This document shows positions 934 to 11,841 of a DNA stretch of 11,941 bases, piece after piece. The stretch comes from Candidatus Thorarchaeota archaeon (GTDB taxonomy: Archaea > Asgardarchaeota > Thorarchaeia > Thorarchaeales > Thorarchaeaceae): contig JAEORO010000231.1 of NCBI GenBank assembly GCA_016840855.1, positions 1-11,941 on the forward strand, read 5' to 3'. The position numbers were made by a program, and so were the translations under genes. Within the stretch, counting starts at the first letter, position 1, and the number at the start of each line of letters is the position of its first letter. The notes beneath the pieces were generated by a model, which made no database searches, had not been told where the DNA came from, and saw nothing but the letters and a program-made list of their open reading frames with translations.

Positions 934-951
934 TTATCTGTCATGAAAAAT

Positions 952-1647
952 CTAATTCTGGGTTCGCGATGCACTGAGCCTGTTGTGCATCTCTACTATT
1001 TCTCTCTTCATCTCATCTGAGAATTCGACAATCAACTTGTCTTTCAGTTCCTTAGTAAGTTCCTCTCCTGCAGCGATTTTCTCTCCCGCAAGTTTTACAG
1101 CATTAAGAAAATCTGAGAGCTGCTTCTTTCCCCTTTCATAGAACAATAACTGCGCAGCTGGAAGAAAGATAGGTAGTGCCATTGGATAGAGGGCTCTCAC
1201 TATATCGAAGTTGCTCGTGTCAGGGAATCCACATGTCGCAGCCAAAACCATGCGTGGAAATCTACGTATTCTACCTGGGTGCCGTGTTTCTCCATCATGA
1301 TTCACCATCTCAGGAAGTGTGAATACAAAGGTCCGTTCCAACAACTTCTGTAAATAGTGAGTCACGTTGCGACCATAGATTGGTGTGCCAAATAGCATCA
1401 CATCTGCATCTGCAATAGCAGGCAGGATTTTTTCCATATCGTCCTTTTGTACACACTTGCCAGGCGTGACCCACCAGCAGTTGAAACATCCACGGCATCC
1501 ATTAATATCTAGGTCGACGATGTGATATTTTTCAACATCTGCCCCCGACAATCTTGCTCCCTCAATGAATGTTTCTAACAGCACATCTGTCGTGCCATTG
1601 GATTTTCTAGGACTGGCATTGAACACTAGAAGCTTCATGTACTGCAC
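952..1647 (-). CDS. Iron-sulfur flavoprotein / NAD(P)H-dependent FMN reductase (flavodoxin-like fold)
   Basis: N-terminal FNASPRKSNGTT FMN-binding loop, CRGCFNCW-x5-C cysteine motif followed by DDM, and ADVMLFGTPIY. True start may be the ATG at 1638. Confidence 0.9.
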   Translation of the reverse strand: MQYMKLLVFNASPRKSNGTTDVLLETFIEGARLSGADVEKYHIVDLDINGCRGCFNCWWVTPGKCVQKDDMEKILPAIADADVMLFGTPIYGRNVTHYLQKLLERTFVFTLPEMVNHDGETRHPGRIRRFPRMVLAATCGFPDTSNFDIVRALYPMALPIFLPAAQLLFYERGKKQLSDFLNAVKLAGEKIAAGEELTKELKDKLIVEFSDEMKREIVEMHNRLSASRTQN

Positions 1648-1722
1648 CAGCTGTTCTCTTCCTTATAGGTTACAGGTCTAAGCAATACTTTTGTCTTGAA
1701 AGATTTGCCAAAGATAACCAAG

Positions 1723-1745
1723 TGGCGGACCGGGCATGATTCGAG
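1723..1745 (-). repeat. tRNA-Ala 3'-end copy (putative att site, type B)
   Basis: TGGCGGACCGGGCATGATTCGAG, 20/23 to type B consensus; intergenic. Confidence 0.85.
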
Positions 1746-1849
1746 TTCGCCACGATTTCTCTCTTAGTGATTTAAGAAACGATTGAACGGATGATTATTA
1801 ACCAACAGCGGATATTGTAGTTCCGATTGGCTAGGGAAAAGGGGCTGTC

Positions 1850-3307
1850 TTGATGAAACGACGCGAACTGCTTGTAGTTACATCTTTTGTACTCGCGCTT
1901 TTGCTAGCTTCGCTCTTGTATCTTGCATCACAAGGATTTTGGAATAGTACAACTGATTCTTCGCCTGATATAATCATACATAATGGTCAAATCCTGACTA
2001 TGGAGCAATCTCCGGCGCAAGTTGAGGCAATAGCCCTCCAAGGTGAGTATATTGTCGCCGTAGGCAGCGAGAGTGATATCCTCACGATGGCAAGCGCAAA
2101 CACCCAGTTCATTGACCTAGAAGGAAGGACACTCCTACCGGGTTTCAATGATGCTCATTCTCATCATATAGGTGACCGGAGTTATGTGAACCAATCATCG
2201 TCAGAGGAAGTGATTGAATCACTACTTAGTTTAGGATGGACTAGCATCTCAGAACTCTTTGTGAATCAAGAACGTTTGGATGGGCTCATATCTTTGGATC
2301 AACAGGACAACCTTCGCATTCGTGTAAATGCCTATCTTCCACTAAGCTGGCAGTTTGAGAGGTTCGGTGATTGGTATCTGACCTATCAACCCGGCCAGGA
2401 ATACAGTTCAAAATTAAGGATAGGAGGTGTGAAGATCTTTATGGACAGTTGGTATACCAATCCACTTCATTACTTTTCTCAAGCCGAACTGAACTCATTA
2501 GTGCAACAAGCTCATGACGATGGATTTCAGATTGCTATTCACAGTGTAGTAGATAACTCTACAGACATTGTTCTAAACGCTTTAGAATCAGCCTTGGATG
2601 GACAATCAAATCAACAATACCGACATCGAATTGAGCACCTTGTCCTACTCAGAAACGACCAGATACAGAGAATTGCTGATCTAGGAATTTTAGCCTCTTT
2701 CCAACTCACTTGGATTAATTCAGACTGGATGGAAGCAGTATCATGGCCGGTCTTGCAGAATTACTCACACCTTGCAGGTAGATGGAGAGATATTCTTGAT
2801 GCAGGGATCCCCTCACTTGGGAGTACCGACTATCCCTGGATTTTTGGTACAGAGCGATCAGTCATGTCTGTGATTTCGAGTGCCGTAACTAGGGTTGGTG
2901 AACTCGGACTCACGCCGTCAGATTGGATGTTAAACCAGACTATTAATGTAGAACAAGCTCTACGACTACTAACAATCGACGCAGCTTATGGGACATTCCA
3001 GGAGAACGTGAAGGGGAGCATCAAGGTGGGCAAATTTGCAGACCTAGTAATTCTTTCAGATAATCCTTTAACAGTTCCAGAAAATACTCTTGCTGAAATT
3101 GAAGTACTAATGACAATGGTGGGTGGGATTGTGGAATACACTGCTCCCGGACATCAGTTTCTATCGGCAGGTTGCGTGGGCGCCATCAGTCAAACGACGG
3201 AAAAAACAAACCCACTGATCAAGATGGAGATGATAGACACTCCGAATAAGAATGAGGAGTGGCGGACCGGGCTTGATGCGATTACCTTCATTTGGAGTTA
3301 TTCCTAA
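1850..3307 (+). CDS. Metal-dependent amidohydrolase (YtcJ-like, Amidohydro_3) with N-terminal signal peptide or membrane anchor
   Basis: Motifs IDLEGRTLLPGFNDAHSH, QIAIHSVVD, RHRIEH, GSTDYP and KGSIKVGKFADLVIL; basic then hydrophobic N-terminus. Confidence 0.9.
   Translation: MMKRRELLVVTSFVLALLLASLLYLASQGFWNSTTDSSPDIIIHNGQILTMEQSPAQVEAIALQGEYIVAVGSESDILTMASANTQFIDLEGRTLLPGFNDAHSHHIGDRSYVNQSSSEEVIESLLSLGWTSISELFVNQERLDGLISLDQQDNLRIRVNAYLPLSWQFERFGDWYLTYQPGQEYSSKLRIGGVKIFMDSWYTNPLHYFSQAELNSLVQQAHDDGFQIAIHSVVDNSTDIVLNALESALDGQSNQQYRHRIEHLVLLRNDQIQRIADLGILASFQLTWINSDWMEAVSWPVLQNYSHLAGRWRDILDAGIPSLGSTDYPWIFGTERSVMSVISSAVTRVGELGLTPSDWMLNQTINVEQALRLLTIDAAYGTFQENVKGSIKVGKFADLVILSDNPLTVPENTLAEIEVLMTMVGGIVEYTAPGHQFLSAGCVGAISQTTEKTNPLIKMEMIDTPNKNEEWRTGLDAITFIWSYS
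3260..3282 (-). repeat. tRNA-Ala 3'-end copy (putative att site, type B) inside the 3' tail of the amidohydrolase ORF
   Basis: TGGCGGACCGGGCTTGATGCGAT, 19/23 to type B consensus; ends about 20 nt before the stop codon of the convergent gene. Confidence 0.8.
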
Positions 3308-4428
3308 TCACTTTCAAACTGAACGCATCTTACTCCTCCCTTAAGTCCAGCTGCAAAACAACGGTTACAGGATATGCATCTAGCAATCTCTTGCGTCCCT
3401 ACTTTTGCTTCTTCAGTCCACCGACGCAGAAGTGCTGGTTCACTGATTATAGGACGACTAAGCTGAATTACGTCGAAAGCAGCAGCTAAATCTCCATTCC
3501 CCGTTAGTAATTTGATAACAGTCTTTGGAGACCGGATACCACCCACCAAACCGAATAAGAGACCACTATCATGTACAGTGGAACGGATAACCATTGCATC
3601 ACCCAAAAAATATGCATCTTCCAAATCTTTTGGTTTCTGAGTTGGGTTTGGACCACTGAATATCACACAATATGCGCCTGCTTCAGCCAGTTTCTTTGTT
3701 AGCTCGCCTACTTCTTCGGGTTTGACGGTGTCAGAGCTTGAATCTACCTTTACTTGGATTGGAATATCAACTGTGTTTTTGATAGCTCGCACAGCATCCA
3801 CCATTGCTTTGCTGCGTCCTTCAATTGATGTTCCTGTATACGGGTCATTCTCTGGGCGATGATTATACGATGGATCAAAGAATTGCCAAAGACCATAATG
3901 ATGAGCTCCGTGAAGCTCAATCACATCAAACCCTGCACTTTCTGCCCGTTTCGCCGCATTTGCATAAGCCTGAGTGACCTCTTCGACGTGGTCTACTGTC
4001 ATCGCTTTTACCTGAACACCTTCTCCCTTAAGACCAGAAACTTCCATCTCACTGGGACCAAATATATCGTTGCCAGAATATTTGGGCAAACTCTTACACC
4101 CACAATGCACCAATTGAGCCGCTGCTAAACCCCCTGATGAATGAATTATTCCTGCTAAGCGTTTTAGACCCTCAACATCTGTGGGCTTTGAATTCGAGAT
4201 CATCCGCCGAACTGACTGTCCCTCTTCCATCACATATTGAAAACCAGTCACCACGATACCCGCTCTGATTTTACTATATGTTTCGAAGATGGTGTTACTG
4301 CAAGTTCCATCTTCTTCTGCCTGCCCCATCCAAGTAGCAGCCCGCATTATTCGGTTGGAGGCTTTCACTCCATTTGGAAGTTCAAATTCCTGAAGCACTG
4401 TACTCTCCCAGGTTTTCTGGTCTACCAT
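3304..4428 (-). CDS. NADH:flavin oxidoreductase (Old Yellow Enzyme family)
   Basis: Motifs NRIMRAAT, AQLVHCG and AGFDVIELHGAHHYGLWQF, plus a C-terminal CISCNRC-x11-C motif. Confidence 0.92.
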   Translation of the reverse strand: MVDQKTWESTVLQEFELPNGVKASNRIMRAATWMGQAEEDGTCSNTIFETYSKIRAGIVVTGFQYVMEEGQSVRRMISNSKPTDVEGLKRLAGIIHSSGGLAAAQLVHCGCKSLPKYSGNDIFGPSEMEVSGLKGEGVQVKAMTVDHVEEVTQAYANAAKRAESAGFDVIELHGAHHYGLWQFFDPSYNHRPENDPYTGTSIEGRSKAMVDAVRAIKNTVDIPIQVKVDSSSDTVKPEEVGELTKKLAEAGAYCVIFSGPNPTQKPKDLEDAYFLGDAMVIRSTVHDSGLLFGLVGGIRSPKTVIKLLTGNGDLAAAFDVIQLSRPIISEPALLRRWTEEAKVGTQEIARCISCNRCFAAGLKGGVRCVQFESD

Positions 4429-4461
4429 TAAATCAGCTCAAATCCCAAGTCACATGACCCG

Positions 4462-4467
4462 TATATA
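4462..4467 (-). promoter_or_regulatory. Putative archaeal TATA box for the OYE gene
   Basis: TATATA about 34 nt upstream of the ATG at 4428, inside the unit boundary. Confidence 0.5.
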
Positions 4468-4494
4468 GGCTTGATGTGATAGACTCGGAAAAAA

Positions 4495-4517
4495 GTTTGG
4501 ACCGAGTGGGGTTCGAA
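4495..4517 (-). repeat. Degenerate tRNA-Ala 3'-end copy (putative att site, type A-like)
   Basis: GTTTGGACCGAGTGGGGTTCGAA, 17/23 to 11765-11787; intergenic, A-rich left flank. Confidence 0.75.
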
Positions 4518-4550
4518 CACCAACATTCTCTCGTCAGAATGGATTACTTC

Positions 4551-5060
4551 TTACAGACTATATTTCTCATGGATTCCTTCGATTTCTACTACAATTTCTT
4601 CATAGTGTGCAATCAGATCAGGTTTCCCAGATTGAATTGCGTGAGATTTTGCCTGATCGAGCAATGCAAGAAGAGCTGTTGTTTTTTCAACAATCTCAGG
4701 ACCTAGCTTTTGCTGTTTCTTGGGTTTTTCGTTATATTTGGCGATTGTCTTCGCGATACTCTGTCTTTCTTTTGAAATCTTCTTGTCCATGTCCAATGTT
4801 ATCATCTTGTCCAGTTTTTCAAGAGAGTCTTCTTCAGCATCAGCAACTGGAGTTGGTTCCTTTTGTTGAGTTGAGAGTCCAAGAACTCGTTTCAGATCAT
4901 CTCGGAAGAAACTGATAAGGAACCCTATGAAGATGACAACAACTCCCGCAAGAAAGCCCTCTAAGCTGGATAACAGATAAGCGATGATACTCACAATGAC
5001 GAGAATTACAATGAGTACTATTAGTCCTTTCCAAGAGAAACTGTTAGATTCGCTATTCAA
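4551..5060 (-). CDS. Hypothetical membrane protein: 2 N-terminal TM helices and a charged helical C-terminal domain
   Basis: 169-aa ORF (TTG start) filling the interval between two repeats; hydrophobicity pattern. Confidence 0.75.
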   Translation of the reverse strand: MNSESNSFSWKGLIVLIVILVIVSIIAYLLSSLEGFLAGVVVIFIGFLISFFRDDLKRVLGLSTQQKEPTPVADAEEDSLEKLDKMITLDMDKKISKERQSIAKTIAKYNEKPKKQQKLGPEIVEKTTALLALLDQAKSHAIQSGKPDLIAHYEEIVVEIEGIHEKYSL

Positions 5061-5198
5061 TGCATTCTCACAAAGTGCACTAGGTGTGGTTTGATTTAAC
5101 TATGTTTCTAGGATTCTGAAGGCTGATTTGAACCTTTCAAGAACTAAAGGGATGACAATCGTTTCTCAGTTAGTTGTTGTGATATTTTGAACAAAGAG

Positions 5199-5221
5199 TG
5201 GTGGATTGGGTGAGATTGGAT
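5199..5221 (-). repeat. Degenerate tRNA-Ala 3'-end copy (putative att site, type A)
   Basis: TGGTGGATTGGGTGAGATTGGAT, 18/23 to 11765-11787; ends 6 nt from the stop at 5227. Confidence 0.8.
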
Positions 5222-5226
5222 TGTTC

Positions 5227-5988
5227 TCATGAGCATCTTCTACGATGATAGATTACCGCTACTAATAGAAAAACACCTGCTACACTGAAAGTTATGAGAG
5301 TAATCGCCAATCCCAAATTGATATTGTTCCAACTCTGAATCAGTGGAAGAATGTTTGTATCATTCAGTGTTTCTAACACTGATACTTCTGCATTGAGAAC
5401 ACTACGATTGGTTTCAATCATTAAGATAATCCCTGTCTGTTGATCATAATACCGATTCATCTGATTCCCCGTCGAGAATACATTTTCAGTCATCCAACAT
5501 ATTCGCGTGGTGGGCAAGCAATCAAACTTTAGCGGTCCAACAGATACAGGATATTCATTTGTTTCATACATCGTGTTAATCGCCGTACTCTCGTTTGTTT
5601 TAGTTGAAATCCAGAATGCTATCTTCTTACTCACTGGATATCCCTCAATCTCAGAGCCATTTGGGTGAAATGCACTCAGAATAAATAATGAATCTCTATC
5701 GACTATCAATCTCCCACCACCGGGAATAATGGTAAACGATTCAGTAGTGGAATTGAAAATCAGACCATGGGAGCGAATTTCAATCTCGATAGTACTTGGT
5801 TCCACTGATGTTATTTTCCAATACAACTCATAGGTATCACCATTTGAGAACTCCTGTTTGTACTGAGCATATGAACCAATATCCAAGAACTCAGGAAGAC
5901 CTGCTTGATTCTGTGATAGAATTGGATGTGGCTGCGTCAGAATGATAGAACAGATGAGAATGAGTAAGAGAAAACGAATCGACATCAC
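5227..5988 (-). CDS. Hypothetical secreted/cell-surface protein with C-terminal membrane anchor
   Basis: N-terminal signal peptide, several N-x-S/T sequons, C-terminal TM helix followed by HRRR. GGAGGTG lies next to the start (ATG at 5985 or GTG at 5988). Confidence 0.8.
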   Translation of the reverse strand: MMSIRFLLLILICSIILTQPHPILSQNQAGLPEFLDIGSYAQYKQEFSNGDTYELYWKITSVEPSTIEIEIRSHGLIFNSTTESFTIIPGGGRLIVDRDSLFILSAFHPNGSEIEGYPVSKKIAFWISTKTNESTAINTMYETNEYPVSVGPLKFDCLPTTRICWMTENVFSTGNQMNRYYDQQTGIILMIETNRSVLNAEVSVLETLNDTNILPLIQSWNNINLGLAITLITFSVAGVFLLVAVIYHRRRCS

Positions 5989-6044
5989 ACCTCCATGTTA
6001 TATTTACATGGAATAGGAAAAGAGTTTCGAACAAAGAAATGAAA

Positions 6045-6067
6045 TGGTGGACTAGGTGGGATTTGAA
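6045..6067 (-). repeat. tRNA-Ala 3'-end copy (putative att site, type A)
   Basis: TGGTGGACTAGGTGGGATTTGAA, 21/23 to 11765-11787. Confidence 0.9.
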
Positions 6068-6075
6068 AACCTGTG

Positions 6076-6089
6076 TATAAAGATTATAA
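6076..6089 (+). promoter_or_regulatory. Putative TATA box(es) for 6130..6669
   Basis: TATAAA (6076-6081) and TTATAA (6084-6089) just right of the repeat; GAGG Shine-Dalgarno-like motif at about 6113. Confidence 0.45.
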
Positions 6090-6129
6090 CCATTCAATAC
6101 ATCTTTGGATTTGAGGTTTCGTTAATTAG

Positions 6130-6669
6130 ATGGGTTCCGAACCTTTGTTTGAAGGAACTTTGAGAGGGTCTACTATCTCAAAAGCGATTCTAGGTCTTTC
6201 CTTTGTTCTGCCATATCTCATTGACTGGTTGAATAGGAGTAGTTATCCTCATCTAATGATTTATGCACCAACTTGGCTACTGCTTGAAAGCGAATGGGAA
6301 TCTTTCATAGGACCCACTCCCATGGCTTTACTCATGTTTGCCTATTGGCTACCATATACCTATGTGGGATTTCAATCATACAGGTTCTCGAAAGGAAAGT
6401 ACTCAAGCGTCAATCGCTATGTTGTTGGAGTCGTTTTTGTTACCTCTCTAGCAATCTTATTGACAATTCCCTTGATGATATCTCCATCAGTTTGGGAAGA
6501 TGGAAGAGTTTTCCATTCCACTGTGATTCCACTACCGCTGGTTTCGATTTTGGCTTTGCTATTAATACCAGTTCTGCGCCCAGTTTTGCTACTATCGCCA
6601 TGGGAAGACGTTAAAGAGAATGTTTTCTCGCGCAATGATTCAATGAATTCAGAACGAAGTATTGATTGA
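6130..6669 (+). CDS. Hypothetical polytopic membrane protein (about 4 TM helices)
   Basis: 179-aa ORF with ATG start and several hydrophobic segments; stop 10 nt before the next repeat. Confidence 0.75.
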   Translation: MGSEPLFEGTLRGSTISKAILGLSFVLPYLIDWLNRSSYPHLMIYAPTWLLLESEWESFIGPTPMALLMFAYWLPYTYVGFQSYRFSKGKYSSVNRYVVGVVFVTSLAILLTIPLMISPSVWEDGRVFHSTVIPLPLVSILALLLIPVLRPVLLLSPWEDVKENVFSRNDSMNSERSID

Positions 6670-6679
6670 AACGAATAAA

Positions 6680-6702
6680 TGGTGGACCGGGCGTGACTCG
6701 AA
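6680..6702 (-). repeat. tRNA-Ala 3'-end copy (putative att site, type B)
   Basis: TGGTGGACCGGGCGTGACTCGAA, 22/23 to type B consensus and 19/23 to the resident tRNA. Confidence 0.9.
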
Positions 6703-6715
6703 GGATGTGATTAGC

Positions 6716-7153
6716 CTAATGATCGTCTGATGTAATGGTTTCCCAAAGTTTCGACAAATACATTGAGGTTAGCCAGAAACCCACGAGAGAAAAGATCAAG
6801 CCAAGTGGAATTGCAAAAGGTCGTAGGTCTGATCCTACGAATCCAATTACAAATGCATAGATAGATGGTATAGCAGCAAAAGTGTACATGAGAACAGCTG
6901 GACCCATGATGTTATTCGACTCGACTCTTTTTCTAAAATGACGATATGACAGGTAGATGAGTAGAATCTCGATGGGCATCAAAATAATCATCAACCATGA
7001 AACAGCATCAGGTAGATTATTACCAGCAGGAAGTTCGGATTCTGGTATTAGGAGTACAATGAAAATCATTACAATGGAGTAGAATAAAATCAGAATTCCT
7101 AGTAGTCTGGCTTTTCTGAGTGATGACATACTGTTGGGATGTTCAGAATCCAT
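6716..7153 (-). CDS. Hypothetical membrane protein (4 TM helices)
   Basis: 145-aa ORF with four hydrophobic segments; BRE/TATA-like GAAAACTTAAA on the minus strand at 7189-7199. Confidence 0.78.
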   Translation of the reverse strand: MDSEHPNSMSSLRKARLLGILILFYSIVMIFIVLLIPESELPAGNNLPDAVSWLMIILMPIEILLIYLSYRHFRKRVESNNIMGPAVLMYTFAAIPSIYAFVIGFVGSDLRPFAIPLGLIFSLVGFWLTSMYLSKLWETITSDDH

Positions 7154-7219
7154 TATACATCCACCAATCTCAGTAAGCAGGGCTTCAGTTTAAGTTTTCA
7201 GTATCTAATAGCGAAGTAG

Positions 7220-7242
7220 TGGTGGACCGGGTGGGATTTGAT
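7220..7242 (-). repeat. tRNA-Ala 3'-end copy (putative att site, type A)
   Basis: TGGTGGACCGGGTGGGATTTGAT, 22/23 to 11765-11787. Confidence 0.93.
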
Positions 7243-7248
7243 ATAATA

Positions 7249-7287
7249 GGAAAAGAAGGGGGGGCTCGATTCAAGTTAAGCCCCTTT
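7249..7287 (-). terminator. Possible terminator for the 7760-to-7309 operon
   Basis: GGGGCT (7261-7266) and AGCCCC (7279-7284) form an inverted repeat, followed on the minus strand by the pyrimidine tract CTTCTTTTCC. Confidence 0.4.
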
Positions 7288-7308
7288 GCGAATCGACATT
7301 TTATAAAA

Positions 7309-7497
7309 TCAAGCAACATTGCTCTTACCGCGCGAACACATTATAGCACCTATGGTCACGAAGATTAAAAGTCCGAGTAGAATCACTAGAAACGGGTCAA
7401 TCACACCTAAGCCAAAGTAGTTACACAATATTCCACCAATGACCACGAAGATTGCTATCATAAGCACTATAATTGCTGCTTTATCTCTTAACTGCAT
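7309..7497 (-). CDS. Small membrane protein (2 TM helices)
   Basis: 62-aa ORF with a strong Shine-Dalgarno GGAGGTGA (minus strand, 7504-7511); overlaps the end of the upstream ORF, suggesting translational coupling. Confidence 0.75.
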   Translation of the reverse strand: MQLRDKAAIIVLMIAIFVVIGGILCNYFGLGVIDPFLVILLGLLIFVTIGAIMCSRGKSNVA

Positions 7498-7760
7498 TTA
7501 GAATCACCTCCTGCACATTTGTTTTTCGTATCTATAACTGAAATCTCACTTTTCCTCAAATGCAACCTCAGAAAACCATAACATCCCTTTAGCTCGAGTA
7601 TTTCAGGTTCTATGAATAAGGCGTGTTGCAATTTTCCAAGGGTTCCTTCTATTAGGATGGCATCATTCACGTCTGTTGAGAGAACTGAGAGTCGGTGCCT
7701 GTTACAAGTGAGTTCGATTGAGAAGTCACACTCACCGTTTTCATTTTCTTGGTTGTTCAT
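7488..7760 (-). CDS. Small hypothetical protein, probably beta-rich
   Basis: 90-aa ORF with ATG start, divergent from the regulator. The FSIEL...ILIEGTLG...ILELKG..G.LRL pattern resembles archaeal hypothetical proteins (from memory, not searched). Confidence 0.7.
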   Translation of the reverse strand: MNNQENENGECDFSIELTCNRHRLSVLSTDVNDAILIEGTLGKLQHALFIEPEILELKGCYGFLRLHLRKSEISVIDTKNKCAGGDSKCS

Positions 7761-7809
7761 CTCTTGTTCCTCGAAACAATAGGTGCTAGATATTTTTGAT
7801 AAGCTTTAA

Positions 7810-8625
7810 TTGACAAGTTTGCGAAAGATTTTGGATAGGTGCGAAATTATTACTACGCCAAACAATGAAGATGAAGAAGAGATCTCGAAGGTTCTCTTTG
7901 AACTTGCAAGTAACCGAAGAGCAAGTATTCTCTTTGAGGTGGAAAAGAAGAGTCTCAAGATGCAACAAATAGCTAAATCTTTAGACATGAATGTCACTGA
8001 AACCTTCAGGCATCTGCAGAGGCTCAGTAATGCAAAACTTGTTGAGAAACAAGTTGACGGCACCTATGCAACAACTTCCTTGGGCACTCTGACGATTGGT
8101 CTTCTCTCAAGTCTGAATTTTGTTTTGAAACATGGAAACTTCTTCTTGGGCCACGATGTTTCTTGTCTTCCATATGAGTTTGTTAACAGACTTGGCGAGT
8201 TGGAAGATGCAGAGTTTTGTGGAGATACAGTGACCACCTTAAATCGGGTCAGAGAGATTGTTTGTGAGGCAAATGAGTACATTTGGACTATGGCCGAGCA
8301 AGTTGATTCTACTAATGTTAATACTGTGAACGAGCAGGTGGCGAAAGGGCTTGATTTCCGTTTCATTATGCAGGAAGAACTTGCAAGAACTATCAAAATC
8401 ACACCTGAGTTTGAGCACCTGAAACAAAGGAAATCTCTCGGTCGTGTGTGTCTCACTCTCCTAGTCACTGATAAGGAGGCGTCCATTAGTTTACGCAGAC
8501 ATAGCGGAGAAACGGATTACATCGGTTTTATCGGAAAAAATGAAAGATTTCGTAAATGGACCCGAGACCTATTCAATTACTACTGGGAAAGAGCTGAACC
8601 ATGGTATCGAGGCATGCAGAAATAA
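7810..8625 (+). CDS. Archaeal transcriptional regulator: ArsR-like winged HTH plus DUF1724/FilR1-like C-terminal domain
   Basis: LFELASNRRASIL...MQQIAKSLDMNVTETFRHLQRLSNAKLVEKQVDGTYATTSLG winged HTH, HDVSCLPYEFVNRLGEL linker, and C-terminal FRKWTRDLFNYYWERA. Start uncertain. Confidence 0.85.
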   Translation: MTSLRKILDRCEIITTPNNEDEEEISKVLFELASNRRASILFEVEKKSLKMQQIAKSLDMNVTETFRHLQRLSNAKLVEKQVDGTYATTSLGTLTIGLLSSLNFVLKHGNFFLGHDVSCLPYEFVNRLGELEDAEFCGDTVTTLNRVREIVCEANEYIWTMAEQVDSTNVNTVNEQVAKGLDFRFIMQEELARTIKITPEFEHLKQRKSLGRVCLTLLVTDKEASISLRRHSGETDYIGFIGKNERFRKWTRDLFNYYWERAEPWYRGMQK

Positions 8626-8682
8626 TAGCTGCCATTTAATTCAGCGATAACTGCATTATCTCACAAATCAGAAAGAATTGGA

Positions 8683-8705
8683 TGGTGGACCGGGTGGGAT
8701 TTGAA
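8683..8705 (-). repeat. tRNA-Ala 3'-end copy (putative att site, type A, perfect)
   Basis: 23/23 identical to 11765-11787. The left flank also contains TCAGAAAGAA, as does the tRNA trailer. Confidence 0.95.
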
Positions 8706-8725
8706 GTGGGAATACGTCCGATCTA

Positions 8726-8735
8726 TTTTTTTTTT
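8726..8735 (+). terminator. Oligo-T tract, possible archaeal terminator
   Basis: Run of 10 T about 100 nt downstream of the regulator stop codon. Confidence 0.35.
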
Positions 8736-8816
8736 GCGTAAAATTGTGGGCCAAGCAAGATTTGATATTGCAAGAGTATGATTAAGTAACTAGTCCTTGT
8801 TTCGGATGTACGAAAT

Positions 8817-9128
8817 TTGAACAGTGAAGAAGAGGATATCCAAATCGTATTCAATCCTGAAGCTGCAAAATCACTTGGCCTCAAGATTATTGTAATGTTG
8901 GCAGTTTTATTTCTCCCAATTCTTCTCATCTATTGGTTTCAAGAAATTCTGCGACCTTTGTATGGCGATCCTACTCCTCTCTCACCAGTCTATCTAAGCT
9001 TGTTTGCCCTCTTCGTAGGATGTTGGGTGTTTGGATTTGGAATCTTTTTACCATGGGCCGGTAGACGTATCGATGCGTTCATAGAAAGCAAGACTCATTA
9101 CAATAATGATTCAGAATTAGATAACTAA
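8817..9128 (+). CDS. Hypothetical membrane protein (2 TM helices)
   Basis: 103-aa ORF (TTG start) occupying the interval between two repeats; two hydrophobic segments. Confidence 0.7.
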   Translation: MNSEEEDIQIVFNPEAAKSLGLKIIVMLAVLFLPILLIYWFQEILRPLYGDPTPLSPVYLSLFALFVGCWVFGFGIFLPWAGRRIDAFIESKTHYNNDSELDN

Positions 9129-9154
9129 GAGAAGCTGTGTGAGTGAGAGAAAAG

Positions 9155-9177
9155 TGGTGGACCGGGCGTGATTCGAT
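9155..9177 (-). repeat. tRNA-Ala 3'-end copy (putative att site, type B)
   Basis: TGGTGGACCGGGCGTGATTCGAT, 22/23 to type B consensus and 19/23 to the resident tRNA; followed by TATA-like TTTAAG at 9181-9186. Confidence 0.92.
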
Positions 9178-9229
9178 TTGTTTAAGTCTTGGCAACTGAC
9201 ATCTCTCTCGTTGTGGAGTTAGGAAGATA

Positions 9230-9907
9230 ATGAAGACATACATCCTTCTGCCAAGAATGAAACGAGGTATGCTTCCTGAAGAGTTTCAAGATGATGATGT
9301 TAGGTCCGCGGAGTTTCTTTTGGAGTATTTTATCGAGCATTTCACACAACCAGGTGATACTGTCTTCGATCCATTTGCTGGATTTGGTACAACACTCCTT
9401 GTTGCTGAAAGAATGAAACGAATTCCATTCGGCATTGAAGCCGATGAACGACGATATGGGTATACTCGTTCAAAGCTGACAATGAAGGATAACATCATCC
9501 TTGGGGACTCTCGTAAACTGGATACATTTCCCCTACCAAATATAGACTTTGTATTCACCTCTCCCATCTTCATGGGATGTGATGAAACCAAAAACCCTCT
9601 TTCTGGATTCAAGGAGTACGGCACCTATCAGGTATACCTTGACCAGATTCAGGATATATTTCGAAAGTTGGATGCGTTTCTAAACCCAGCAGCTAGGGTG
9701 GTTGTTGAGGTCTACAACCTAGCCCCAAGAGATGGCCGACCGATGACCCTCCTGGCTTGGGATATGACTTATGCGATATCTAAAGTTCTCAGATTCGAGA
9801 AAGAGATTATTGCATGTTGGCAAGGCGTGGATGATGAAAACACCGGTGAAACCCCAATGGGTGTTGGGTATGACCATCACTACTGTCTTGTTTTTGTAAA
9901 AGATTGA
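9230..9907 (+). CDS. SAM-dependent nucleic-acid amino-methyltransferase-like protein (N6/N4 DNA methylase or Trm11-like)
   Basis: FTQPGDTVFDPFAGFGTTL SAM-binding motif I, GDSR, and IDFVFTSPIF at the position of the catalytic SPPY motif. Confidence 0.85.
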   Translation: MKTYILLPRMKRGMLPEEFQDDDVRSAEFLLEYFIEHFTQPGDTVFDPFAGFGTTLLVAERMKRIPFGIEADERRYGYTRSKLTMKDNIILGDSRKLDTFPLPNIDFVFTSPIFMGCDETKNPLSGFKEYGTYQVYLDQIQDIFRKLDAFLNPAARVVVEVYNLAPRDGRPMTLLAWDMTYAISKVLRFEKEIIACWQGVDDENTGETPMGVGYDHHYCLVFVKD

Positions 9908-9911
9908 GAAG

Positions 9912-9934
9912 TGGTGGACCGACCGCGATTCGAA
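9912..9934 (-). repeat. tRNA-Ala 3'-end copy (variant of type B)
   Basis: TGGTGGACCGACCGCGATTCGAA, 20/23 to type B consensus; 4 nt after the methyltransferase stop. Confidence 0.85.
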
Positions 9935-9959
9935 CTCGTACCTTGTGAAAACGAGTTTC

Positions 9960-9985
9960 ACGGAGTCACGCGACCGCCTCCACTT
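9960..9985 (+). repeat. Inverted tRNA-3'-end-like copy
   Basis: Plus strand GAGTCACGC-GACCGCC-T-CCA-CTT. The reverse complement matches the 6680 copy at 14/23, including an exact GCGTGACTC and correctly spaced CCA. Confidence 0.5.
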
Positions 9986-10047
9986 TGGATTTGTGCCAGT
10001 GTTTAGCTTTTGGCAAAGACCTGTTTATCAAAATCATCAATAGTCAA

Positions 10048-10863
10048 TCAATGTTTTCGTGTCAGAATCCCGGTATCAAAATGAAGCATCTGATGTCGGA
10101 CTCTTCTTCTAAGTTTAACACCAGACTTAGAATTCTCAAATATACTTTCACCTGCTAGTATCAAATCGTTGACTAAGTTCTGAGTTTCTATATCTGGACA
10201 ACGTTTAAGCCAATGAGTTAGATTCTCGAGTTCTTTTCGAATAAGTTTCATAACTGTCCTAGTGGGCTTACCATTATCAATAAGATCAACTCTCATCATT
10301 TCCTGACCCAGATAATGATATAATACCTTCAGAGAAATCAATAGAATTCTCCGACATGTGACGAAATCACCTCTTGCATTCCCTGGTCCTCTAAGGGCCA
10401 ATCTTTCTGCTCTACCAGTATAGTACCACTCTATCGGATCTTCATTATGCCCAATCTTCTCAATTACTATTTGACAGAGTTCTATGGGTGTATAGTCTTT
10501 CCTTGATAGGTACATCGTTGCAGATGGCAAACCAGGGATGTCTGTTTTGTCGAATCTAATTGGGAGAATCCCTCCATGCAATACTTTGACAGTATCCGAG
10601 AGTGTAGATCTTTTCTCAATTGTTGGATAGAATTTTTCTGCATAGTGCTTAGAGATGAACATGACACAGTATCTGCAACCATTTTCAAAAACATGGTGAA
10701 GAAACTCCACAAGATTTTCTCCCCACATCTTCGTCGTTTCAAATTCATCGAAAAAAACTTTGACTCCACTATTTCTCAAACAAATAGCGACGTCTCGCAC
10801 ATATTCTCTCTCTTCTCCAGCAAAAGATAGTGCAACATCATATTCTCGTTCTTTATCCTCCAC
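10048..10863 (-). CDS. TIR domain-containing protein (TIR_2-like N-terminus, unknown C-terminal domain)
   Basis: YDVALSFAGEEREYV...LRNSGVKVFFDEF...CVMFISKHYAEKFYPTIE, with Glu at the usual catalytic position, and ILPIRFD. GTG start with Shine-Dalgarno AGGTGA. Confidence 0.9.
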   Translation of the reverse strand: MEDKEREYDVALSFAGEEREYVRDVAICLRNSGVKVFFDEFETTKMWGENLVEFLHHVFENGCRYCVMFISKHYAEKFYPTIEKRSTLSDTVKVLHGGILPIRFDKTDIPGLPSATMYLSRKDYTPIELCQIVIEKIGHNEDPIEWYYTGRAERLALRGPGNARGDFVTCRRILLISLKVLYHYLGQEMMRVDLIDNGKPTRTVMKLIRKELENLTHWLKRCPDIETQNLVNDLILAGESIFENSKSGVKLRRRVRHQMLHFDTGILTRKH

Positions 10864-10878
10864 TCAAATCACCTATTG

Positions 10879-11691
10879 TCATTTATTATCATGAATCTCG
10901 TTTGCTGAAACCGTTTCATTCTCTCCTGTATAATTACTGAATGAAGTTGCCACAGAATCAACTACTCTCTTGTCAATTGATACAATTCCAGTTTCCCACG
11001 TGTCATTCTCGGAATTCCTAGTGAAATTCATTGAAGAAACAATAGCCACTTCATTGTCCACGATGACCAATTTCGAGTGAACTCCCCCTGCACCTCCTTT
11101 CCTCCCGGAATAGTACATGTCAACTCCTTCAGCTATTAGAGTCTTGTGAAACTCCCATCTCTCAGGGTCTCTCTTTGGTCGTCTAGTGATTAGGGAAACC
11201 TCGACTTTTCTCTTTGCAGCGCTACGAAGTGCTGTGCCCAATGTAGCTCCATCCACAAATGGATTGACAACCACAATGCTTGCTTTTGCACGATCCATTA
11301 GACGTCGGGTGATATCTGTGAGATTGGGTCCCTCTAAAAAGAAATGATGATTGTCGAGTGATACATTCACCCCAGCTGTACTAATCCACTGCTTAATCCA
11401 GTCGATATGTTCACTGGTCTGTTCTTTCTCAGGTTTGGTTACTTGTTCCACTGGGTTTGACTGATACTGCCTTTTCAATTCGTGGTCGATAATTCGAAAC
11501 CTTTTGATGCCTTCAATCTCCTCATAGGCGATTGTTTCTGAATTTCTTAGCTCTTTGACTGCCTTTAACATCTGGTTCTGAGAGAGTCCGGACTTTTCTC
11601 GAACATCCTTCCAATGGTCTGCAGCATCAAAGATGATAGCCCGGAGTATTTGGCCTTTCCAGGAGTCCCAGTATTTTGGCTTGTCTGACAT
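10879..11691 (-). CDS. Phospholipase D superfamily (HKD) protein, nuclease-like, with N-terminal winged-HTH-like domain
   Basis: Single HSKLVIVD (HxKxxxxD) motif followed by SSMNFT and ETG; AKASIVVVNPF and VEVSLITR; HTH-like N-terminus (WKDVREKSGLSQNQMLKAVKEL). Confidence 0.85.
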   Translation of the reverse strand: MSDKPKYWDSWKGQILRAIIFDAADHWKDVREKSGLSQNQMLKAVKELRNSETIAYEEIEGIKRFRIIDHELKRQYQSNPVEQVTKPEKEQTSEHIDWIKQWISTAGVNVSLDNHHFFLEGPNLTDITRRLMDRAKASIVVVNPFVDGATLGTALRSAAKRKVEVSLITRRPKRDPERWEFHKTLIAEGVDMYYSGRKGGAGGVHSKLVIVDNEVAIVSSMNFTRNSENDTWETGIVSIDKRVVDSVATSFSNYTGENETVSANEIHDNK

Positions 11692-11764
11692 TTTCTAATC
11701 CCCTACGCACGTGAATTGATTGGATTATCTCTGTAAGAACTCCCTCAAATACCTTCAGAAAGAA

Positions 11765-11841
11765 TGGTGGACCGGGTGGGATTTGAACCCACGACCTCCT
11801 CCATGCCAAGGAGGCATTCTACCAGTCTAAACTACCGGCCC
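11765..11841 (-). tRNA. tRNA-Ala(GGC) with encoded CCA
   Basis: Reverse complement GGGCCGGTAGTTTAGACTGGTAGAATGCCTCCTTGGCATGGAGGAGGTCGTGGGTTCAAATCCCACCCGGTCCACCA. Acceptor stem has G3:U70, anticodon arm is CCTCC-TTGGCAT-GGAGG, T-arm is GTGGG-TTCAAAT-CCCAC. Confidence 0.98.

Follow-up and report, generated by a model that had tools for sequence, protein, structure and literature searches.

A probable integron-like stack of small gene cassettes at a tRNA-Ala gene in a Thorarchaeota archaeon

Integrons combine an attI site, an adjacent intI gene encoding a tyrosine recombinase, and compact, reshuffled gene cassettes whose attC sites fold as imperfect inverted repeats. Casposons, another group of elements considered here, target the 3' ends of tRNA genes. 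In this study, a contig from a metagenome-assembled genome (MAG) of Candidatus Thorarchaeota was analysed, in which short copies of the 3' end of a tRNA-Ala(GGC) gene separate small groups of open reading frames (ORFs). The contig (C201) is the whole stretch of 11,941 nucleotides (nt), referred to below as the window, and is part of the 3.36-Mb MAG G000 (259 contigs; 92% complete; 6% contaminated). The window is probably an integron-like stack of small mobile gene cassettes downstream of the tRNA gene, which would be served by a putative recombinase.

The resemblance to integrons lies in the compact, mostly single-gene cassettes, which have their own site at one end, are stacked by a fixed entry site and are reshuffled between relatives, and in a cargo of defence, surface and metabolic genes. 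Unlike in integrons, the site here consists of 23 nt copied from the tail of a tRNA and contains only one strand of each tRNA stem, and the ORFs lie on both strands. No intI was found beside the array in the window or elsewhere in G000, the contig stopping 100 nt past the tRNA gene so that the far side is not seen. The locus is also unlike casposons, as there is no Cas1, there are no terminal inverted repeats, the linkage between copies and cassettes is one-sided, and adjacent copies are not clearly more alike.

Elements that integrate at tRNA genes are the other obvious comparison. Papers citing Williams 2002, as far as their available parts go, distinguish three sublocations within the tRNA gene: the anticodon loop, the T-loop and an asymmetric 3' end. 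In these sources, symmetry about the loop is what defines the T-loop class, and the 26-bp core of mycobacteriophage Ms6 holds both T-stem strands, with the loop as the proposed site of exchange. The islands that tyrosine integrases form at tRNA genes, in the accessible part of the Islander work, are like the present locus in having a full tRNA gene, 3' copies in the same orientation and tandem stacking at one gene, and the repeat from T-loop to CCA is common in bacterial islands. They are unlike it in that here no integrase is encoded in the units or in the genome, the units are only 0.45-1.8 kb with 1-3 genes, and there is no symmetric stem. The attP and attB sites of Ms6, in the part of that literature covered, involve the same tRNA species and a core running from the T-arm to the 3' end, whereas the copies here begin inside the loop and the Ms6 core has both T-stem strands.

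The tycheposons and other tRNA-seeded islands of Prochlorococcus are also tRNA-seeded stacks and are closest in ecology; tycheposons carry a tyrosine or serine recombinase and replication genes in the excerpts available, whereas no unit here encodes a recombinase. By analogy, and within the covered part of these accounts, the topology of the stack would be closest to the integron and its ecology to the Prochlorococcus islands, both of which encode a recombinase. Aloposons and the Atabeyarchaeia elements were also considered, and the accessible portions of their descriptions differ from these arrays. No description of such arrays in Asgard archaea was found in the main texts searched, supplements lying outside the search.

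Tail copies and cassettes at tRNA-Ala(GGC)

The tRNA-Ala(GGC) gene lies at the right end of the window with its 3' end pointing toward the cassettes, and seeds the array. Ten copies of its last 23-24 nt are present on the plus strand, each matching 16-23 of 24 bases, while a search of the minus strand of the window for copies of the tRNA tail returned none. A degenerate pattern allowing up to 3 mismatches gave 10 matches on the plus strand only, against 0.06 expected by chance, and none of 200 shuffled windows reached 10 matches. An independent de novo repeat search of the window yielded the identical family (D1-D5). The gene and the copies are as follows.

11765-11841, minus strand: tRNA-Ala(GGC) gene, CCA encoded (ARAGORN; Rfam tRNA, 65.5 bits)
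9912-9983, plus strand: long tRNA-Ala remnant (alignment with the intron-bearing tRNA-Ala of G012 and G001; BLAST, 79% over 76 nt)
9155-9177, plus strand: tail copy, 23 nt, GCGTG stem type, loop ATTCGAT, heading the methyltransferase cassette (pattern and alignment)
8683-8705, plus strand: tail copy, 23/23 identical to the gene end (pattern, alignment and repeat search)
7220-7242, plus strand: tail copy, 22/23 (pattern and alignment)
6680-6702, plus strand: tail copy, 23 nt, GCGTG type (pattern and alignment)
6045-6067, plus strand: tail copy, 23 nt, with the acceptor variant GGACTAG, also present in the G005 homologue (pattern and alignment)
5199-5221, plus strand: degenerate tail copy (pattern and alignment)
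4495-4517, plus strand: degenerate tail copy with an ambiguous end (18/24 match; repeat family D2)
3260-3282, plus strand: tail copy, TGGC variant, within the 3' end of the amidohydrolase ORF (pattern and alignment)
1723-1745, plus strand: tail copy, TGGC variant, possibly 5 nt longer (pattern and alignment)

The remnant at 9912-9983 is the reverse complement of the tRNA from the CCA to the T-arm; it runs on through the second strand of the T-stem and an intron-like insert of 32 nt, and stops in the anticodon loop near 9983, about 49 nt beyond the stopping point of most copies. The live gene at 11765-11841 is without this insert. The remnant represents a second, longer class of repeat, and an array in another genome (L143 in G082) is mostly built of such long copies. 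Weak matches to the tRNA tail (15/24) at 8744-8766, 911-933 and 5073-5095 may be either eroded copies or chance; the one at 8744 lies only 38 nt past the copy at 8683. The 9 nt preceding each copy, which were not used in choosing the sites, are purine-rich (0.35-0.95 bits at positions -9 to -1), and correspond to a pyrimidine-rich trailer after the CCA when read in the orientation of the tRNA.

The copies divide the contig into 11 compact units of 0.45-1.8 kb, each with 1-3 ORFs on either strand, and all-versus-all BLAST demonstrated that these cassettes recur in other arrays. Those for the amidohydrolase, the old-yellow-enzyme (OYE) family oxidoreductase, the FMN reductase, the methyltransferase and the 145-aa and 253-aa proteins were found at 67-88% identity with different neighbours, including in other genera (G066, G082, G076). 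The methyltransferase cassette, for instance, has homologues in G013 (86%) and G018 (88%), again with differing neighbours, and the ATTCGAT loop of the copy at 9155 is also found with homologous cassettes in G005, G018 and G016, where the left neighbours are different. Clusters of at least 3 copies on the same strand formed 20 arrays in 17 of the 30 genomes sampled by loci, and such clusters were present in other genera of the family (G066, G082, G055). The pattern was matched in 79/79 genomes of family f1, compared with 0/1 in f2, counts that also take in the tRNA genes themselves. Several cassettes are 75-82% identical between genera, compared with 63-71% for the flanking DNA at those loci; this hints at transfer, although the enzymes concerned are conserved.

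The eleven units, from the tRNA gene leftwards, are:

9984-11764, minus strand: tRNA-proximal cassette with a TIR-domain protein (10048-10863) and a PLD-family nuclease-like protein (10879-11691) (Pfam TIR_2, PLDc_2; PADLOC PDC-S66, DrmC/MkoB-like)
9178-9911, plus strand: cassette with an N6/N4 DNA methyltransferase (9230-9907) (Pfam)
8706-9154, plus strand: cassette with a 103-aa ORF (8817-9128) of no family, containing the weak extra copy at 8744 (ORF list, Pfam)
7243-8682, both strands: cassette with 62-aa and 90-aa ORFs (minus) and a FilR1/HTH regulator (7810-8625, plus) (Pfam; homologue in G012)
6703-7219, minus strand: cassette with a 145-aa ORF (6716-7153) of no family (homologues in G016, G014, G011 and G005)
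6068-6679, plus strand: cassette with a 179-aa ORF (6130-6669) of no family (ORF list, Pfam)
5222-6044, minus strand: cassette with a 253-aa ORF (5227-5988) of no family (86% identical to G005 over 859 nt)
4518-5198, minus strand: cassette with a 169-aa ORF (4551-5060) (weak PADLOC '1TM effector' match)
3283-4494, minus strand: cassette with an NADH:flavin oxidoreductase of the OYE family (3304-4428) (Pfam)
1746-3259, plus strand: cassette with an amidohydrolase (ORF 1850-3307, running through the next copy) (Pfam; homologues in G006, G013, G004, G066 and G076)
934-1722, minus strand: cassette with an FMN reductase/flavodoxin-like protein (952-1647), its left border at the weak copy 911 uncertain (Pfam; homologues in G016, G001 and G066)

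The TIR and PLD-family (DrmC/MkoB-like) pair at 10048-11691 resembles a two-gene defence module. The last 16 residues of the amidohydrolase ORF are encoded by the copy at 3260-3282 and the sequence after it, and a homologous amidohydrolase cassette in another genus (G066:C99) also has the rare TGGC variant in the copy at this side. Homologues of the flavin oxidoreductase were found at 19 archaeal MAG loci, 15 of which are titled Candidatus Thorarchaeota. A crude scan for copies beside these 19 homologues gave a match within 250 nt in 7/19 on one side and 3/19 on the other, with many of them degenerate, and no conclusion was drawn from it.

Elsewhere in G000, a multi-copy family of beta-helix repeat surface proteins of 420-1,100 aa with a C-terminal membrane anchor was seen (G000:C127:8478-10106, C12:1360-3093 and other contigs). 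Two of these proteins lie directly behind a tRNA gene or tRNA fragment, and are for this reason regarded as cassette cargo. The family had surfaced near tRNA fragments in the phmmer hunt for an integrase, where it was rejected as an enzyme candidate.

Where the copies end and where exchange occurs

It had been proposed from the sequence alone that all repeats stop at the T-loop and that this end marks a fixed crossover site. The continuations cited in support of this, GTGGG after the copy at 8683, ATAAT at 7220 and AACC at 6045, are correct against the sequence, and the 11 copies counted are the 10 copies together with the gene itself. The claim that every copy stops there overstates a real mode. 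Similarity is lost at repeat positions 21-23, equivalent to tRNA nt 54-56, in 7 of the 10 copies (3260, 5199, 6045, 6680, 7220, 8683 and 9155). Of the others, 1723 is ragged and may extend 5 nt more (TTCGC, as in the intron-type tRNA-Ala of relatives), 4495 is too degenerate for an endpoint to be called, and 9912 reaches the anticodon loop.

A wider sample was therefore drawn from the window and 54 loci of relatives, giving 136 sites from 30 genomes, chosen by the acceptor part alone (at least 10/11) so that later positions were left unbiased. It comprised 40 full T-arms and 96 fragments. The first departure from the expected tRNA fell at positions 22-25 in 62 of the 96 fragments, earlier in 28 and at 26-27 in 6; a smaller, earlier set had given 31/64 at 22-23. 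Information content was 1.29 bits at position 21 and 0.56, 0.29, 0.39 and 0.14 bits at positions 22-25. The shared end in the T-loop is real and modal, but somewhat ragged and not universal.

Fragments of other tRNAs in G000 likewise end in or just past the loop, and occur as stacks or single tail fragments at these places:

C209, 4871-9518
C138, 1043-2854
C127, 556, 797 and 10242
C161, 4562 and 7974

Many tRNA genes of G000 are located at contig ends. The sequence-only reading had also favoured a site-directed process over random decay of tRNA genes, and this is supported: the common, non-random inner end of the copies and their single orientation are indicative of a site-directed process, and the cassettes are reordered across genomes.

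A shared end and a crossover need not coincide, and the two can be told apart by asking which cassette a copy follows. A crossover at the T-loop edge predicts that a copy travels with the cassette to its left, and one on the CCA side that it travels with the cassette to its right (in the orientation of the window). Flanks were scored as homologous on sequence no closer to the copy than 22 nt (left) or 40 nt (right). At positions 11-22, pairs of copies with only the right flank homologous agreed at 10.2/12 (40 pairs), compared with 9.1/12 for those with only the left flank homologous (40 pairs) and 8.8/12 for the background (4,314 pairs). The difference between right and left gave p = 0.001 and that between left and background p = 0.27, the pairs being non-independent. 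Among the closest pairs, with flanks at least 87% identical, the right class scored 12, 11, 12, 12, 11, 11, 11 and 12, and the left class 9, 10, 9, 12 and 9; of the 8 pairs in the right class, one is the tRNA gene with the intron itself, and some have the most frequent type of copy and are little informative. Position by position, linkage is to the left flank up to about -7 and to the right flank from about -5 on, with the switch between about -6 and -1.

Individual cases follow the same pattern. The odd loop ATTTGGC stays with the oxidoreductase cassette in G012 and G001 where the left flanks are unrelated, and a truncated copy in G004 and G009 has right flanks that are 98% identical beside unrelated left flanks. 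Between G012 and G001, which are 92-94% identical, the tRNA-proximal cassette differs and so does the copy before it, while the tRNA tail is the same; a T-loop crossover predicts the opposite. Together these comparisons are suggestive of the T-stem and T-loop part of the copy going with the right cassette, and so of exchanges near the CCA end.

Strand exchange inside the T-loop is not supported, as the positions of the stem and loop follow the cassette lying past the loop. The proposal that each fragment had arrived with the cassette on its left runs against these data, since positions 11-22 follow the right cassette and left-only pairs are near background (with p = 0.08 at the level of cassette families, see below). 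The T-loop crossover that had also been suggested, in which a tyrosine integrase would act on a 7-bp spacer flanked by symmetric stems, is likewise not supported: the copies keep no second T-stem strand, and no integrase was detected in the MAG and one in only a few relatives. Positions 23-27 hold 0.04-0.39 bits, that is, no conserved second strand, and the pairs they form with the stem average 3.0/5 compared with 2.2 in the control, in a sample that includes some long copies.

In terms of the tRNA sublocations, the extent of the repeat agrees with the T-loop class, as given by the counts of 62/96 fragments and 7/10 window copies, whereas flanking symmetry, an integrase and exchange in the loop were not observed. 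The asymmetric 3'-end class, as outlined in the available part of that literature, may fit better, with linkage switching between about -6 and -1 and an exchange interval no narrower than -6 to +13.

A mechanism can be envisaged on this basis. On the plus strand, a unit starts with the 23-nt copy (CCA, discriminator base, 3' acceptor strand, 3' T-stem strand and T-loop), continues with 1-3 ORFs that may point either way, and closes with a purine-rich tail of about 9 nt abutting the next copy. Through its own copy, the cassette would recombine either with the tRNA gene at its 3' end or with a further copy, and units could thereby stack, swap and drop out, the end of the tRNA corresponding to the attI of an integron and the copies to attC. 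The shared end in the T-loop would then be the outer edge of the block of sequence common to the partner sites and not the point of strand exchange. The exchanges that separate related genomes would lie on the opposite side of this block, from about 6 nt outside the CCA end to the junction of acceptor and T-stem. With exchange on the CCA side, the copy would therefore stay with the cassette beyond its T-loop, and the T-arm of the tRNA would be untouched.

A putative recombinase and the alternatives

The search for an enzyme was largely negative. No recombinase was found among the window proteins with Pfam. In G000, there was no match to PF00589 or PF16795 for tyrosine integrases, the MAG being 92% complete and the absence thus unproven, and none to PF00239, PF01867, PF01797, PF01548 or PF00078; the classes without a match in G000 are tyrosine recombinases (two families), serine recombinases, Cas1, Y1 transposases, IS110 enzymes and reverse transcriptases. 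PF04986 and PF02407 also had no match in G000, but their controls matched nowhere and the result is uninformative. A phmmer search of G000 with ORFs from the Thorarchaeota integrase loci of relatives returned no integrase. PF00589 was found in 6/21 genomes of the genus, where the contigs concerned were small and had no tRNA-tail site, and in 1/5 further genomes, never beside a copy. No PF00589 match was found in G076, which is a single contig of 3.16 Mb with a small array. It was also observed that G000, G076, G041, G046, G066 and 15/21 genomes of the genus have no Phage_integrase match, hence not even a Xer-type recombinase was detected in them. As MAGs lose mobile elements, an integrase may act in trans.

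The enzyme could therefore be either an unrecognised recombinase or one encoded on elements that fall outside the bins, possibly helped by short-homology recombination in the invariant acceptor part of the copies. A more specific proposal, which we put forward tentatively and with some doubt, is that Thorarchaeota have a cassette-capture system of their own, in which the tRNA 3' end is the entry site, the 23-nt copy is the recombination site and the recombinase belongs to an unrecognised class. The last part is suggested because the searches were negative, for the classes listed in G000 and for a tyrosine recombinase in the single-contig relative. The site is one-sided, with 23 conserved nt next to the junction and no more than a purine-rich tract opposite them, and would fit an enzyme whose binding is confined to one side of its cut.

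Among the alternatives, a tyrosine integrase of the T-loop class is improbable here. It would exchange strands in the 7-nt T-loop, renew the tRNA tail with each integration and leave the fragments as former ends that arrived with the left cassette. The direct repeat does span the T-loop to the CCA and its end is sharply modal. By the classical rule in the accessible Islander text the tRNA gene is rebuilt by the island, whose end can be recognised by the displaced fragment, and loop mutations in tRNA-Ala reduce integration of phage Ms6 in the part of that study available. However, the second T-stem strand is not kept, positions 11-22 are tied to the right and not the left cassette, the tRNA tail is the same in G012 and G001 although the proximal cassette differs, and G000 gave no PF00589, PF16795 or phmmer match, with PF00589 in only 6/21 and 1/5 relatives, so that this explanation is already strained. 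It is also unlikely, if less so, that the copies are attachment scars left long ago by larger elements, with integrases since lost or never binned, the diversity coming from homologous recombination and deletion between 23-32-nt repeats, with no present movement of cassettes. Such scars would agree with an exchange interval covering the longest invariant stretch, the acceptor part, as is expected for homologous recombination, with a difference between G012 and G001 derivable by two deletions, with cassette identities (67-88%) mostly within the range of species divergence, and with the second kind of event shown by the long remnant at 9912. They would leave unaccounted for the uniformly compact cassettes with intact ORFs and no integrase debris, the same short end at several different tRNAs in several genera, the cassettes at 75-82% between genera against flanks at 63-71%, and the 98% identical right flank behind unrelated left flanks in one species pair.

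Target-site duplication is the least credible of the explanations considered, and seems very unlikely. In this case, a transposase or casposase-like enzyme would make staggered cuts at the T-loop and the CCA end, duplicating 23 nt with each insertion. This could explain the tendency of the stem type of copies to match the resident tRNA and the presence of the rare TGGC variant in both copies flanking the amidohydrolase cassette. Duplication predicts symmetry, whereas the linkage is one-sided; adjacent and non-adjacent copies of the same array agree at 20.5 and 19.9 of 23 (p = 0.09), G000 has no Cas1, and the cassette ends are without terminal inverted repeats, none being among the 25 longest inverted-repeat pairs of the window.

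Several observations also weigh against an integron-like stack of cassettes that move with their copies. In addition to the lack of a recombinase among the window proteins, no circular form and no clean empty site were seen. When linkage is compared at the level of cassette families (9 versus 9), the values are 10.0 and 9.4 with p = 0.08, which is weak once non-independence is allowed for. The exchange interval is not finer than about -6 to +13 owing to the nearly invariant acceptor part, and comparison of the window copy at 6045 with its counterpart in G005 suggests exchange at positions 10-13. The mapped exchanges may be later homologous recombination between copies instead of original integrations, and two deletions would also account for the difference between G012 and G001. 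Copies tend to have the stem type of the resident tRNA, with GTGGG in G000 only and CTGGG in 5/5 copies of G066 (L140, G066:C9), and the loop variant ATGTGAA occurs in 4/5 copies of G082 (L143, G082:C9). Judged from these variants, copies and tRNA appear to evolve in concert in G082 and G066, and the match of stem types calls for local birth of units or gene conversion, as travel with the cassette alone does not explain it.

Other lines of evidence were tried and set aside. An argument that the stem variants of the fragments misfit the present tRNA was dropped, as most variants still form 4/5 pairs. Sixty viral-contig loci with the pattern were examined, and these were mostly intact tRNA genes, none in a Thorarchaeota context. 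At least half of the sampled words of the contig were present in 15 public runs, and no circle junction was found in the short Logan contigs of such runs. Among these, a contig joining 9911 to 11765 (X14) has only 20 nt on one side, with 10 fitting both places, and loose ends are found at 9153 (X14) and 4490 (X13), in each case to the CCA side of a copy. All of these could arise from the repeat or from relatives of the organism, and they are not counted as evidence.

Implications for gene flow in Thorarchaeota

For the study of tRNA-derived repeats, the lesson is that the inner end of such a repeat need not mark the crossover, since the comparative data here put the exchanges at the opposite end. 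The arrays would also explain the tendency of MAG contigs to break beside tRNA genes.

If the stacks are active, they would be one of the main routes for the acquisition and exchange of flexible genes in Thorarchaeota, a lineage that seemingly lacks the usual integrases. The cargo at stake includes the TIR and PLD defence-like genes, the methyltransferase, surface proteins and redox enzymes. If the integron-like interpretation is true, Asgard archaea would possess a gene-capture device comparable to the integron, together with the hint of a recombinase of a kind that has so far gone unrecognised.

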